In this document: one piece after another, positions 489-56,192 of the stretch
Numbering within the stretch: the stretch's first letter is position 1
Layout: every line of letters begins with the position of its first letter
From: Octopus sinensis
Lineage: Eukaryota
Reading direction: 5' to 3'
NCBI RefSeq assembly: GCF_006345805.1
Contig: NC_043001.1
Span: 84,568,001-84,632,000, forward strand
Length of the DNA stretch: 64,000 nucleotides
The notes under the pieces: generated by a model
What the model was told of the DNA's origin: nothing
Seen by the model: the letters and a program-made list of their open reading frames with translations, nothing else
Database searches by the model: none
Position numbers and translations under genes: made by a program

Positions 489-524
489 CTTTTACGTTTC
501 GAGCCTACGCTCTCCGACAGAAAG
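489..524 (-). ncRNA. Degenerate minimal type-I hammerhead in the PLE pLTR
   Basis: Minus strand reads cttt-CUGUCGG-a-gagc(gtag)gctc-GAAACGUA-aaag. Stems I and II are intact, but the core has two deviations from CUGANGA. Confidence 0.55.
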
Positions 525-1532
525 GTACACAGAAAAAAACAAGGAGAGAAACAAGGAGAGAAAAAAATGCGTGTAGTAGCTAACGATCTATCATGGCTTC
601 TTGACTTCCGACAATGGTCAGACGCGAAAGGACAGTAGGGGAGATAACAGAGTCAAGTGACTTCTAATACGAAGGTGCCACCAACACAAAGGTGCGTGTA
701 TGTATAAGAGAGTATGTATGTGCGTGTGAAAGAGGGCTGGTGGTCTGGACGTGCGTGTGTATGTATGTGTGGATGTGAGATGTGGAGATGGGTGTGCGGG
801 TGGTGTGTTGTGATGTGATATGTGTATGTATGTGTAGGCTTAAAGATGTGGGGAGGCATGTGATGTTGTAGGGTGTAGTGTAGTGTGGTATGATGTTGTG
901 GGAGGTGGGGGAGGTGGGGGAAAGCACAGGTGGGGTATGGGTTCGGCTAGAGGTTGGGGTAGAGTGGGGGTTGTGGGTAGGTAGAGCGTAGGGTTAGAGG
1001 TGAGGTATGTGGGGGAGGGGTATGAGATAGGGTTGAGGTATGTGGGGAGAGGTGTGGGATAGGGGTGACGTGTGTGGGATAGAGTGGGGAGAAAGGGTGG
1101 GAAGGATAGGGAAAGTGGAGTAGGGGTGGGTGGGTTTTTTGGGGGAGGGGAAGGTGGGTATATGAGGAGAGAGAGGAGGAAAGAAGGAGAGACGAGAAGA
1201 GAGGGCGGGGAGGGGGAGAGAGGGAGAAAGGGGAAAGAGGAGAGGGGGGGGGGAGGAGGAGGAGGAGGGGGGGAGAAGAGGAGGAGGGAGAAAAGTGGAG
1301 AGGGGAGAGAAGGAGAGTGAAGGAGCAGAGAAAAAGAGACAAGGGAGAAGAGAGTAGGAGAGAAGAGGGAAAGAGAGTAGAGGGGAAGAGGGAAGAAGAG
1401 GGAGAAGAAGGAAGAAGGGGGAAGAAGGGAAAGAAGGGAAGAAGAGGGAAGAAGGGAAAGAGGGAAGAAGAGGGAAAGAGAGTAGGGGTGAAAAGATGTA
1501 GGAGTGAAGATAAGTAGGAGTCGGGGAGGAGG

Positions 1533-1995
1533 TTAGATGAAAAGTGGGGGAGAGTTGAGCCCAAATGGCGTAAAAGAGCAAAGAGAGAAGATTAAACCCT
1601 GTTTACGGTGCAAGCGGGAATCAGGATGGCCTCTGTGCAAGGACAATCCGAACACAGACAGGTGTTGCAAGGAGTGACCGGTGGAGCGGAAATGGCGTGA
1701 GACTTGAGTGTCATTGGCGAGGCGGATGTCTCGGAGTTGTTCCGCGAACCGGTCAGCCAAGCGGCGTCCTGTTTGTCAGATGTACAGGGAATGGCAGAGA
1801 GAGCAGGAGATGAATAGATGATATTGCTGGAGGTGCAGGTGAAGGAGTCGATGATGCGATAGGGTCGATGATGGGTGCCGGTAGGAGGGTGGTGTTGGAG
1901 AGGTAAGGGCAAGTGCGGCAGCGTGGGCGGGAGCAGGAGAAGGAGCCAGGTTGGGAGGTAGGGTTGGGGAAGAAGCTGTGGACCAAGAGGTCTCA
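1533..1995 (-). pseudogene. Frameshifted PLE GIY-YIG endonuclease domain
   Basis: Three overlapping ORF pieces (1753-1986, 1592-1996, 1533-1760) join into a CxxC linker plus GIY-YIG domain ending in GLN. Confidence 0.8.
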
Positions 1996-2011
1996 TATAT
2001 ATATATATATA

Positions 2012-2763
2012 TTTAAAAATTAAGGGTAGAAATTGATATTAGTCAATTAAAACCAGTGGTCTAGCACATTAAAAAGAATCCGAAGATTAAAATATTTATA
2101 TATACCAATTAAGGACTGAACACGAAAAGGTGGACAGTCAACATGCTAGATATAGACGTCAAATCGCCATTCTCCACAAGGATTATGCTCTCAAATAAAA
2201 ATAAAATCAGCAAGCACGACCTAAAGCAATGGATGAGACAAAAGAAATATACTAAATGGAATAATTACCTACGTACTGCAGTTTCAGCTATTAATATCAC
2301 AAGGATATCTGTAGCTTCATCAGCGTAGTTTGTTATGAGCATAATATGCTGTACTAGATGAAAAACGGTACCGGAGTCCCGCATGCAAAAAGTACAACCT
2401 ATTACGTTCGGATGTATCTTCTCGAATGCCTCTACTTTTGGCGCGCTGATAATCGAAAAACTAGCTTGCAGCCAATAATTGCAGCAGTCAATTTATCGGT
2501 TTGAGAACATATATTTCATATTTAAAAATTAAGGGTAGAAATTGATATTAGTCAATTAAAACCAGTGGTCTAGCACATTAAAAAGAATCCGAAGATTAAA
2601 AAATTTATATATACCAATTAAGGACTGAACACGAAAAGGTGGACAGTCAACATGCTAGATATAGACGTCAAATCGCCATTCTCCACAAGGATTATGTTCT
2701 CAAATAAAAATAAAATTCAGCACGACCTAAAGCAATGGATGAGACAAAAGAAATATACTAAAT
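2012..2763 (-). mobile_element. Retrozyme-like non-coding element, ~1.5 units of a 509-nt repeat, (TA)n-flanked
   Basis: 2012-2257 is repeated at 2521-2763, and an intact HHR lies between the two copies. Confidence 0.8.
2269..2328 (-). ncRNA. Type-I hammerhead ribozyme, intact core
   Basis: Minus strand reads ctacg-CUGAUGA-agcta...tagct-GAAAC-ugca-GUA^cgtag. Predicted cleavage is between 2274 and 2273. Helix III ACUGCAGU is a palindrome. Confidence 0.92.
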
Positions 2764-2800
2764 ATATATATAATATATTATATATATATATATATATATA

Positions 2801-52981: not shown

Positions 52982-54156
52982 AAACTTTATCAATAATTTA
53001 TAATTATAATAGGGCACAAGCGGCGCCAGCATTGTTGTGAAAATCAGTCGAAAAGTCGGATCTTTGTGGTTTTCACCAGTTTATATGTTCCAATTGTTTT
53101 CAAATTTGGTATATGGATTAAGTTTTGTATACTAAGTATGAAAATTAAATTCAGTGGCAAAGAATTCTGTTTCCATAGTAACCAAAGATACTGTGCATGC
53201 GCAGAAGGAGGAGAAGGAGATACGAGAAAGGAAGGGGTGATAGATGAATAAGGAAGGAAGAGGTGATGGCAAACTGGTAGTGGAAGCGTTACAACTCTGT
53301 GTGAGTATATGTGTGTCTGTATGAAAGGGAAGTATGTGAATCTTTGTGTGTTTGTGTGTGTATGTGTGTGTGTGTGCGTGCGTGTGTGTGTGTGTGTGTG
53401 TGTGTGTGTGTGTGTGTGTGTGTGTGTGCAGGTGCTCAATGGATGTGGGATGGTGAACATTCAACGCTGAAAAGAGAAATCAAACAGCGTTTCAACTTTG
53501 TGCGAATATATGTGTGTGTGTGTGTGCGCGTGATTGCCCGGGACAAGCTAGTTTATTTTATAAAATCCTAGGGTGTATTGCAAACGTTTGTTCTTGAATT
53601 TTTCTAATAAATGTCAGTTTTAAACAATGCTTTGACTGTTATTTCTAGCAACTCCTATTGGCTTGTTTGTTCGTAGCTTTCAAATATTTAATTTGCTCGC
53701 AAATGTTTTAAGGTTAACTTCATTTTGTATATTTTAATGTTTTGACTGTTATTTCTAGCAATGTTTTGACAAGCCGATACCTCGATCCGTCCCCCGATTA
53801 TGGAAAAGGCAGCGAACACTGATTGGCTGAAAATTCTGAAAATTAGCCAACTTTGAACACCTGTAACAATTTTGCAAAATTTTTCTGGTACGAACGAATA
53901 ACAAATTCGGATTCAGCGTAAAAAAAATTACATCTGATTGATTCTAGTTTCAGCTTATGAGCTGTGGCCATGCTGGGGCACCGCCATTTCTATATGATAT
54001 TTTAGAAAAATTTTTTCAAAGATTATTGTAAACAGAAACGAGAACCACAAAGATCCGAAAAATCCTCTAAGAAAACCACAAGACTTTTCGATTCTGATTT
54101 TCACAATACTGGCACTGCATGTACCCTATTATAATTATAAATTAATTATAAAGTTT
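52982..54156. repeat. Segment bounded by diverged ~90-115-bp inverted repeats (possible non-autonomous element)
   Basis: 52982-53074 is approximately the reverse complement of 54042-54156. Confidence 0.55.
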
Positions 54157-55448
54157 TGGATTTACCATTTATCGGCTTTTGCTTGTTGGCCACCCATATT
54201 GTTGTTACTATTCAGTTTACTAACGATAACAATTGATAATATCTACATAAATATTTTCGAATACTTATTCATTTAATCTATGTGCATATATATATATATA
54301 TATATATACACTTAAGCCTATATATGCACATATATGCACAGACACGTATATTCCATATATATATATATGTGTGTGTATGTGTGTGTGTGTGTGTAAATGT
54401 GCGTATACGCAACCGAATATGTGTATGCATGCATATAAGGATGCAAACGCATGCAAGCATGTATTCACATACATACGCACATATATACGCATACATGCAC
54501 GTTATCTATCTATCTATCTATCTATCTATCTATCTATCTATCTATCTATCTATCTATCTATCTGTCTGTCTGTCTGTCTGTCTGTCTGTCTGTCTGTCTG
54601 TCTGTCTGTCTGACTGTCTGTCTGTCTGTCCATGTATCCATGTATCTAGTTAGCTATATATATATATATATATATATATATATGTATTTATGTATAAATA
54701 TATATTGTTACATATGCTAAATCTGATCACTTGCTGCGAAAATATACCCTTCAGACACATACATATATCACGCATATACACTTACATATCCGATAAATAC
54801 GTAATAGACACACACACACACACACACACACACACACACACACATACATACACACACACATACATACATACATACATACATGCATACATACATACATACA
54901 TACATACATACATACATACATACATACATACATACATACATACATACATACAATTATGCACAATCGCATACTTATTCATTTTCCAGGTACACATTCACTT
55001 ACGATATCCACATGTAAATTCATTTTCATATACACATACGTACTCACACATATTCACATGCTCCCCCTGTGTGTATATGAGAAAACCTATTAGCGTCGCT
55101 AAATTATTGATACAAAGAAATGATGTATCCATTTAATAATGTTTTTTAATCAAAAGCCATGCATAAGAGATATGAAAAATGAACATAAAAACGCACTGAA
55201 TGAATAATACTGACAAGAAAAGTTTATAAGACTTATTGAGGTGAAGGAGCAGTTAATGGAAAGGAATGGCAGGAAGGTAATGGATTGATACTGTGTTGAT
55301 AGAAATGAACAGGTATTGCTGTGGGGGTAAGAAGCTCGTTTTACAACCACGAGGTTTTGAGTTCAGTACCACAGCGCAGCAACTTGAGTGTCTTCTACTA
55401 TAGCCCCGGATGACCAATGCTTTGTGAGTGAATTAGATAGACAGAAAC

Positions 55449-55815
55449 ATTTCGGCTGCCGCTACGTTCTGAGTTCAAATTCCGCCGAGGTCGACTTTGC
55501 CTTTCATCCTTTCGGGGTCGATCAAATAAGTACCAGTCACGCACTGGGGTCGATATAAGCGACTTAATACGTTTGTCTGTCCTTGTTTGTCCTCTCTGCG
55601 TTTAACCCCTTGTGGGTAGTAAAGAAATGTGTATTTCGTCTGCCGCTACGTTCTGAGTTCAAATTCCGCCGAGGTCGACTTTGCCTTTCATCCTTTCGGG
55701 TCGATAAATTAAGTACCAGTTACGCACTGGGGTTGATGTAATCGACTTAATCCGTTTGTCTGTCCTTGCTTGTCCCCTCTATGTTTAGCCCCTTGTGGGT
55801 AATAAAGAAATAAGA
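55449..55815 (+). mobile_element. Family A SINE tandem dimer
   Basis: Two near-identical bodies joined tail-to-body at gtaaagaaat-gtgtatttcgtctg. Confidence 0.8.
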
Positions 55816-56147
55816 AACACTGTCATGTGTGTGTCTTTGTGTTTGTCACCCTATCATCATCACCACTTAATATGCGTTAGATAAGACATTGGGATCAGTC
55901 GAAGAGAAAATAAAATTAAAGATTAGCGATTGCTTTTCGTAAGCATCGTCGATTTTTACAATCCTGTAAGGAATAATAATACTTTATAAGCTTAAAGCTT
56001 ATAAGCGATCTCCGTGATAATAGTTTAATAATGGAGCATATAAGCCCTCGACGGAAAGAAGTAGGTTTTCTCGTACGCGTGTATATATATATACACACAC
56101 ACACGCGCGCACACACACAAACACAAACTTTCATAACACATGAAAAG

Positions 56148-56192
56148 TGTCGCTGAAGAGGTCACAGATGTATGACGAAAGATTTTCGGACA
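56148..56192 (+). ncRNA. Type-I hammerhead candidate
   Basis: tgtcg-CTGAAGA-g-gtca(cagatgta)tgac-GAAA-gatt-TTC-ggaca. Confidence 0.6.

Follow-up and report, generated by a model that had tools for sequence, protein, structure and literature searches.

The window studied here, a stretch of 64,000 bp in all, carries 18 hammerhead-shaped motifs, which belong to seven families (A to G) and lie in 12 insertion loci. A sequence-only reading of the same DNA had claimed more than 15 type I motifs from about seven families, and this was borne out: the edge of such a motif, either type I or a decayed relative, was found at all 18 positions that it named. Every core nucleotide (CUGANGA, GAAA and UH) is kept in 10 of the 18, with the first core base at 2323, 15302, 16723 and 18407 on the minus strand and at 18864, 19362, 20504, 46027, 47340 and 56153 on the plus strand. 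The cores of the other eight are changed, namely at 489 (A6 and A9), 17081 (C3), 17182 (A14) and 47159 (A15.1 missing), at 23571, 23586 and in the copy at 35221 (U4C in each), and in the copy at 49998 (U4C plus G12 and U16.1).

A structure descriptor was applied that demands an intact core, helix I of at least 3 bp, helix II of at least 4 bp and a helix III that is self-complementary (at least 74%). It was passed by eight of the 18 motifs, all core-intact and, as the descriptor demands, all (8/8) with a self-complementary helix III, which agrees with the roughly nine intact cores with paired stems counted earlier. The core-intact motifs at 20504 and 47340 failed, one helix being weakened in each. 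Because three of the eight matches are copies of family A, they represent only six separate insertions. In 200 block-wise dinucleotide shuffles the mean number of matches was 0.01 and the maximum was 1, and a relaxed descriptor search gave 11 real matches against 0.49 in shuffles. The motif frequency is not that of shuffled sequence, a check that the earlier reading had proposed. The Rfam search that it had also proposed gave a negative outcome: over the whole window, no hammerhead row was present among 139 matches at E ≤ 1, and none at gathering score. It can be seen that about 8% of such DNA (5,348 of 64,000 bp here) can consist of hammerhead-bearing repeats missed by Rfam. Rfam miRNA matches were rejected as microsatellite or palindrome artefacts, and ARAGORN found no tRNA. 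When 16 motifs were folded, 14 did not exceed the stability of shuffled sequence at z −2. An extra base between A9 and G10.1-C11.1 is present in families B, E and G; family D is mismatched there, and A and C are without it.

Family A occupies 18186..19690, where a 279-bp inverted, 5′-truncated arm (18186-18464, minus strand) lies head-to-head with 2.46 tandem units of 499 bp (18465-19690, plus strand), with (TA)n on either side. The units match at 497 positions with one mismatch and one gap, and the arms are identical at 279 of 279 positions. The hammerhead at 18856..18962 (plus) has an intact core, an 8-bp helix I, a long helix II arm and a 12-nt self-complementary helix III; its cut is predicted after 18954 and its fold reaches z −4.7. 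It recurs intact in the second tandem copy (19354..19460, plus) and in the inverted arm (18309..18415, minus). A second hammerhead-like motif lies in the unit at 18744..18794 and is repeated at 19243-19292 (plus), with a minimal helix III and position 6 read as C (A6C). Its score was equalled by 2 of 3000 monomer shuffles, and its core is buried in the lowest-energy fold. The A6C change is reported to favour manganese. The GC content of the unit is 0.36, and its fold as a circle reaches z −5.5 (40 shuffles).

Family A was found on 16,112 and 7,766 contigs of two public sequencing runs, and its 499-bp head-to-tail joint was seen in 4 of 4 public runs; these data are contigs only, which may contain DNA even in two runs presumed (though not registered) to be RNA and so speak neither for nor against expression, and the junction of a circle is identical to that of the genomic tandem. 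Depths in the two large runs add up to 0.3-4.6 million, which should not be read as a copy number, and the depth profile, which cannot rank parts of the unit, has no step at 18954. None of the 31 variants listed falls in the 13 core bases. Among 12 variants at paired positions, nine keep the pair, two keep the palindrome if they co-occur and one breaks the pair; the variants are transitions, and only five of the six that fall on Watson-Crick pairs leave the bases paired (p about 0.11). The family A pattern gave nothing in metagenome contigs. In contigs of two other runs, the unit leaves for (AT)n at 19086/19087, which is the 3′ end of the inverted arm here, and this recurring end fits the fixed internal start sites of the Penelope-like element (PLE) Poseidon (PMC11167929).

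Among the seven families, longer-than-unit repeats are confined to A, C and D. Family C (2013..2763, minus), flanked by (TA)n at either end, has a 509-bp unit present in about 1.46 copies, and its tandem has one hammerhead only (2269..2328, minus), which is intact, with a predicted cut after 2274 and a fold at z −2.7; unit GC is 0.35 and the circle fold z −4.4 (40 shuffles). In family D (16622..17444), a minus-strand arm of about 1.5 units, each 358 bp long, stands head-to-head with a plus arm that starts 12 nt upstream of its core. The hammerheads are at 16684-16730 (intact), 17042-17088 (C3 changed) and 17177-17221 (A14 changed), one of the two in the tandem being intact. The D units differ by 12%, their GC content is 0.44, and the circle fold reaches z −1.6 (40 shuffles). 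A loose family D pattern gave six viral-contig matches, which were taken as unrelated.

At 1530..1992 (minus) lies the 3′ part of a Penelope-like ORF, decayed and frameshifted, in which a CX4CxxC linker is followed by a partial GIY-YIG endonuclease. In ESM Atlas this remnant had a lead-level score of 0.93 to eukaryote GIY-YIG clusters, 0.9 being reached by 4-10 of 100 shuffled proteins, and it found no match in Pfam or in two sequence searches. No viral locus was found for P0006. The linker and the domain order, not a tree, give a lead that the remnant may be of Neptune type. Downstream of it and in the same sense, separated by a pyrimidine-rich stretch of about 950 bp, lies a family B-related 3′ end (397..575, minus), which contains a decayed hammerhead (489-524) and ends at (TA)n. 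It scored 66-85 against four other B copies, and each score was reached by 0 of 500 shuffles. From the orientation, and as no TA run lies between them, we infer that this end and the ORF remnant form one element. Family B is thus related to a hammerhead that follows a GIY-YIG remnant, and likely represents the 3′ end of a Penelope element.

The four other B copies are located at 15168..15378 (minus; intact minimal hammerhead at 15272-15306), 20455..20630 (plus; core intact, base of helix II mismatched), 35148..35354 (plus; U4C, helices damaged) and 49900..50108 (minus; broken core, 92% identity to the 35148 copy). Both ends are common to three B copies. The covariation that had been proposed as a check is weak: pairing is kept by 9 of the 12 family A variants, while the five B copies have one two-sided change in 10 pairs, which 105 of 500 shuffles reach. 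The family B pattern gave nothing in metagenome contigs and nothing in viral contigs.

Families B, E, F and G have no tandem unit and are present as short single or fold-back pieces. Family E comprises a head-to-head piece between two (TA)n runs (45922..46160; hammerhead 46024-46103, plus, intact core) and a fold-back (47026..47623, centre 47251) with one hammerhead per arm, that at 47159 (minus) broken and that at 47340 (plus) core-intact with a weak helix I. A repeat beside family E (34104-34270/46822-46987) was rejected as PLE coding sequence, being by eye a mariner end. Family F is a fold-back (23453..23660, centre near 23578), both arms of which have U4C and begin no more than about 10 nt before the core. 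Family G is a single piece (56129..56370, plus) with a marginal hammerhead at 56149-56190 (fold z +0.7). U4C is common to both F arms and to the two 92%-identical B copies. Most simply, B, E, F and G are 5′-truncated PLE ends.

Most motifs had been described as bordered by (TA)n. Of 17 element 3′ ends, 12 lie within 15 nt of (TA)4+, compared with 2% of 3000 positions drawn at random from unmasked sequence; SINE-like control ends lie at (TA)n in 14 of 40 cases, so that the border is enriched, not unique. The hammerhead sense points to the TA-joined end in unrelated families. An inverted 5′-truncated arm or a fold-back is present in A, D, E and F, and the PLE-type architecture takes the form of tandem plus inverted copies in A and D, inverted copies in E and F, and a tandem in C. 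In A and C, AT letters of the unit itself merge into the TA run, and no target duplication is readable. Two of three tandem arms start 10-17 nt past the predicted cut.

No PLE reverse transcriptase (RT) was found in the window, where 261 of 304 ORFs of at least 55 aa were scanned, a scan that may miss short decayed remnants; the sole RT match was an AP-endonuclease LINE. An absent RT is expected for 5′-truncated copies. Pfam gave no match on the ORFs scanned in units A, C and D, and no sequence link to any PLE ORF was found for A, C, D, E, F and G. Of the remnants of two PLE lineages seen in the sequence-only reading, one (1530-1992) has tool support, and the second is left as by-eye pieces without significant match: the piece at 34330-35050 (minus) gave none by phmmer (1.84 billion representatives), two word searches or Pfam, and that at about 5400-6300 (minus) gave no significant one (linker peptide best E 0.66; by itself this peptide had an uninformative ESM Atlas score of 0.76).

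Taken together, these results suggest that the seven unrelated families are likely PLE pseudo-LTR ends (B, E, F and G) and non-coding tandem derivatives (A, C and D), likely copied into TA microsatellites by a PLE RT-endonuclease from elsewhere in the genome (probability about 0.85). The link to PLEs drawn earlier is favoured by the tandem-plus-inverted architecture, by the 3′ ends on (TA)n and by the B hammerhead downstream of the GIY-YIG remnant in the same sense, and is set back by the lack of a PLE RT in the window. To call all the motifs non-autonomous ribozyme retroelements went too far, since only A, C and D are longer than one unit and A alone shows complete hammerheads in two successive units; what had been presented as one system is instead a collection of separate insertion events that differ in age. 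Most copies in the window are dead, and the class of PLE-related hammerhead repeats is already described in papers from 2014 to 2026.

For such insertions, the GIY-YIG domain would nick (TA)n, and the nick would serve as primer for reverse transcription, which would start at an AT site inside the RNA and end early, often near the hammerhead. Two products joined 5′ to 5′ would give fold-backs, and arms longer than one unit would come from multimeric or circular RNA. Cleavage by the hammerheads would take place mainly in dimers or with the aid of a protein, and some insertions can probably do without it.

PLE minimal hammerheads have a self-complementary helix III and an extra base before helix II (PMC4209133). 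The motifs in the window resemble these pseudo-LTR hammerheads in their type I topology, in the palindromic or minimal helix III that implies dimers, in the extra base in B, E and G, and in the presence of many families per genome, mostly as single or opposite-strand copies from truncated elements. They differ in that both the extra base and the G10.1-C11.1 pair are missing from A and C, whose helices I-III are longer, and in that U4C recurs in B and F. For EN+ PLE insertions (Neptune/Nematis type), a tandem-plus-inverted 5′-truncated architecture is described, as is a tail of 30-40 bp (PMC8557442). The likeness extends to 5′ truncation, partial tandems, an adjacent inverted 5′-truncated copy, microsatellite bias and, at 1530-1992 only, a CX2-5CxxC linker upstream of a C-terminal GIY-YIG domain, whereas the RT domain is absent from the window. 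Poseidon of Anolis (PMC11167929) has an AT-rich target and a fixed internal RT start, which match the 19086 end of family A. In contrast, its hammerhead is protein-assisted and dispensable for insertion in vitro, while two tandem arms here start just past the predicted cut.

Family A is the only family to which the definition of a retrozyme applies, and its two complete hammerheads agree with the rule of a 2026 preprint (10.64898/2026.07.22.740005). A further possibility, which we regard as unlikely, is that family A is an active, very abundant 499-nt circular-RNA retrozyme with two modules per unit (canonical-core and A6C), copied from RNA with a self-cleaved 5′ end. If true, these insertions would provide evidence, at the genomic level, of ribozyme cleavage in vivo that fixes the end of the template.

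It is more doubtful still that all seven families are true non-LTR retrozymes, that is, non-autonomous elements that cleave themselves, form circular RNAs and spread via them. Besides family A, the circle folds of A and C, far better than shuffles at 35-36% GC, speak for it, as do the three B copies with the same two ends, which are expected of a non-autonomous family. Against this, a coding remnant precedes B489, no tandem unit is seen in B, E, F or G, the circle fold of D reaches only z −1.6, and the U4C shared by the F arms and the B pair suggests, from sequence comparison, that copying may have continued after the core was weakened; moreover, only one of nine predicted Xenopus retrozyme dimers cleaved (10.64898/2026.07.22.740005). 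Animal non-LTR retrozymes have units of 150-450 bp (PMC7229834) or 51-972 bp, and their origin as non-autonomous PLE derivatives was already proposed (10.64898/2026.07.22.740005). The tandem families are similar to them in having non-coding units with one type I hammerhead each, a GC content below 50% and, in A and C, a strongly self-paired predicted circle. They differ in that the units of A and C (499 and 509 bp) are longer than those of the narrower range (PMC7229834), though within the wider one (10.64898/2026.07.22.740005), in the inverted head of A and D, in the location of A and C in (TA)n with no readable target duplication, and in the A6C-type second motif of unit A.

Another explanation is that A, C and D arose from old PLE ends that were amplified on the spot by DNA recombination into satellite-like arrays, their hammerheads being inert. 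Tandem arrays can grow by unequal crossover (discussed in 10.64898/2026.07.22.740005), and no pile-up of molecule starts or ends was present among those listed (contigs only). However, the arrays are short (1.5-2.5 units), non-integral and bounded by (TA)n, A and D carry an inverted partner, and two other runs again show family A ending at 19086 on (AT)n, so that this explanation seems highly improbable. As the D units are 12% apart and the A units nearly identical, it may hold more for D than for A. Lastly, a chance origin of the motifs, in repeat DNA rich in AT and prone to hairpins, would agree with the missing Rfam match and with G and several decayed copies folding no better than shuffles, but is scarcely credible against 8 matches for 0.01 expected (relaxed, 11 against 0.49) and the recurrence of one orientation rule and of a symmetric helix III among families unrelated in sequence; the descriptor and shuffle counts rule it out for A-E, and family G alone could be such a match.

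As likely PLE ends and their tandem derivatives, the repeats bear on the function of PLE hammerheads, which has been called unclear (PMC8557442). Family A, being young, abundant and non-coding with an intact hammerhead, is a handy test of what these hammerheads do, and thousands of its insertion ends could be mapped against the predicted cut site. Both 5′ ends of family A in the window lie at a predicted helix (18801-18808/18965-18972), and a snap-back model of its junction fits only to within 3 nt, with three bases left over.

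The sequence-only reading had placed hammerhead ribozyme motifs at 18 positions, in about seven families and with about nine intact cores. All 18 coincide with hammerhead-shaped motifs, which fall into seven short repeat families (A to G) without BLAST match between families; all core bases are retained in ten motifs and changed in eight. The descriptor used for detection consisted of the core CUGANGA, GAAA and UH, a helix I of at least 3 bp, a helix II of at least 4 bp (one extra or mismatched base being tolerated at its foot) and a helix III required to be self-complementary. 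It found 8 motifs in the window, as against an average of 0.01 and a maximum of 1 in 200 block-wise dinucleotide shuffles; when one core mismatch was tolerated, 11 motifs were found as against 0.49. Hammerhead families were not reported in the Rfam check of the window. When the motifs were folded singly, a z of −2 relative to shuffles was exceeded in 2 of 16 (family A, −4.7; family C, −2.7). In the lowest-energy monomers predicted for families A, C and D, the core is paired with helix III and the active fold is not formed, which would fit dimer-dependent motifs. The hammerhead motifs of the window are genuine, dense and for the most part decayed, and the 12 insertion loci that bear them together occupy 5,348 bp.

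Read in the hammerhead sense, the elements have a common orientation and point to their TA-joined end. The (TA)n borders described earlier were recovered: (TA)4 or longer lies within 15 nt of 12 of the 17 element 3′ ends, compared with 2% of random unmasked positions. For comparison, 14 of 40 SINE-like ends likewise adjoin (TA)4 or longer. Family A (18186-19690) is a 279-bp inverted arm placed head-to-head with 2.46 nearly identical units of 499 bp, with a TA run on each side; family C comprises 1.46 units of 509 bp flanked by TA runs, and in family D an inverted arm accompanies about 1.5 units of 358 bp (87-93% alike). Family B is scattered over five sites as pieces some 200 bp long, three of which have both ends in common; families E and F are represented by fold-backs, and family G by a single, marginal piece. 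Fold-back or inverted pairs by TA runs were also seen at 50179-50526, 46207-46366 and 3758-3873/4312-4430, where no hammerhead was detected; these are possibly Penelope-type insertions that end short of the ribozyme.

Remnants of two lineages of Penelope-like elements (PLEs) had also been claimed. One remnant gained support from a tool, a frameshifted coding stretch at 1530-1992 (minus strand) with a CX4CxxC motif followed by a GIY-YIG-like stretch, the latter scoring 0.93 to eukaryote GIY-YIG clusters in the ESM Atlas. On visual inspection, two more stretches, at 5400-6300 and 34330-35050 (minus strand), look like decayed coding sequence of the Penelope type; searches confirmed neither. No PLE reverse transcriptase was found among the 261 of 304 ORFs of the window that were scanned. 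Because Pfam and two sequence searches gave no match to the 1530-1992 remnant, its GIY-YIG assignment is taken as a lead supported by motif order; a linker of the CX4CxxC type is described for Neptune, Nematis and Naiad elements (Craig et al., PMC8557442). Downstream of this remnant, in the same sense, lie about 950 bp of pyrimidine-rich DNA, a decayed hammerhead (489-524) and a TA run. The 3′ end that carries this hammerhead (397-575, minus strand) is related to four other family B copies (0 of 500 shuffles for each), and comparison with families D, E, F and G gave no clear relation. This position downstream of the GIY-YIG remnant, together with the kinship to other B copies, suggests that family B probably represents the 3′ terminus of an element of the Neptune type. 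A short match to the 3′ tail of the element at 489 (E 3e-5) occurs at 56455-56505 (minus strand), with the hammerhead absent.

Words of the family A unit were present in 20 of the 24 public sequencing runs listed, spanning 10 studies and five coded organisms; one run may be the source sample. Four of these runs were aligned to the unit as contigs. The unit was covered by 16,112 and 7,766 contigs in two large runs, the 499-bp head-to-tail joint was seen in all four, and in two runs contigs pass from the unit into (AT)n at 19086 and 19087, which is where the inverted arm of the window has its 3′ end. Among the 31 variants listed, 14 lie inside the hammerhead. Its 13 core bases are free of variants, and 12 variants affect paired positions, where the pair is kept in nine and broken in one (18938). 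Variants 18947 and 18948, with 25 contigs each in run X1, would preserve the helix III palindrome if linked. Since transitions often keep pairs, these variants lend weak covariation support; for family B a single covarying pair was seen, a result matched by 105 of 500 shuffles. By sequence criteria, family A can be classed as a non-LTR retrozyme.

The motifs, their orientation, the architecture, the TA ends, one endonuclease remnant and the abundance of family A are observed, and from them we infer a route of insertion. A PLE protein would nick (TA)n, reverse transcription would start inside the RNA and end early, and two products would be joined 5′ to 5′; arms longer than one unit would derive from multimeric or circular RNA. 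An internal start on AT-rich DNA was demonstrated in vitro for an Anolis element, in which system hammerhead core mutants did not block insertion (PMC11167929). The change U4C, which reduces hammerhead activity in vitro (PMC3088659), is common to both F arms and to two close B copies. Hammerhead cleavage is probably dispensable for insertion.

Two leads arise, one from the longer arms and one from unit A. Among the three arms longer than one unit, whose phase is free, those of A and C start 10 and 17 nt past the predicted cut (after 18954 and 2274, respectively) and that of D does not; the chance of such starts is about 0.006 for a 20-nt window picked after the data were inspected. A stall of reverse transcriptase at helix I and an RNA end produced by cleavage would explain them equally well. 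Secondly, unit A holds a further hammerhead-like motif 115 nt upstream of the main one, with C at position 6. Its score was equalled in 2 of 3000 monomer shuffles, its best predicted fold hides the core, and no variant of it was listed among the contigs of the four aligned runs. A6C is a natural hammerhead variant, weak in Mg2+ and preferring Mn2+ (PMC7151607, PMC3088659); the plainer reading is a decayed ancestral module.

Hammerheads of PLEs, with numerous families in single genomes and opposite-strand pairs, are described in PMC4209133, and PLE insertion architecture and microsatellite bias in PMC8557442. Animal retrozymes have been reported, including in a mussel, and one coral has 16 hammerhead families (PMC7229834). 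A 2026 preprint (Li, Clavereau and Pollet, 10.64898/2026.07.22.740005) presents retrozymes as non-autonomous PLE derivatives, with cleavage in one of nine tested. Among cephalopods, 235 hammerhead 1 loci are given for the giant squid (PMC6962438) and 31 recently active Penelope-like families for Octopus vulgaris (PMC13282606); in the available portions of the latter and of PMC8967140, ribozymes are not mentioned. No description of families A to G was found in the literature on octopus or cephalopod hammerheads and Penelope, and they may be catalogued in Dfam or Repbase as Penelope or unknown repeats. The families would be new members of a class already described.

The window as a whole has the character of animal repeat DNA with abundant microsatellites, and its SINE-like repeats are, we presume, octopus-like. 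An AP-endonuclease LINE, near-complete and frameshifted (Exo_endo_phos, RVT_1, zf-RVT), lies at about 27266-32525, with a diverged second copy at 9950-11600 and a 3′ fragment at 41547-41971. A short decayed stretch at 58850-59150 is taken by eye to resemble an R2/R4-type LINE restriction-like endonuclease. Mariner transposase remnants were found by Pfam at 13082-14250 and 38337-38600 and by eye at 47700-48500 and 11800-12500; 39-bp inverted ends lie at 12925-12963 and 14180-14218. The unit at 19990-20200, adjoining a TA run, is tRNA-like at 20011-20082 (Rfam tRNA, 31.2 bits), and ARAGORN called no tRNA there; its 3′ flank (20096-20140) matches 56016-56060, and it may be a mobile repeat carrying a tRNA. 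A 515-bp repeat in two tandem units (59305-60326), with fragments at 23728-24126, terminates with a hairpin and CTAG and is presumably Helitron-like. Two cysteine-rich, decayed coding-like repeats (25832-25971 and 26259-26400, minus strand) are 81% alike and negative in Pfam. Finally, a 183-bp SINE-like unit forms short tandem arrays at 9600-9967, 55449-55812 and 63043-63594.
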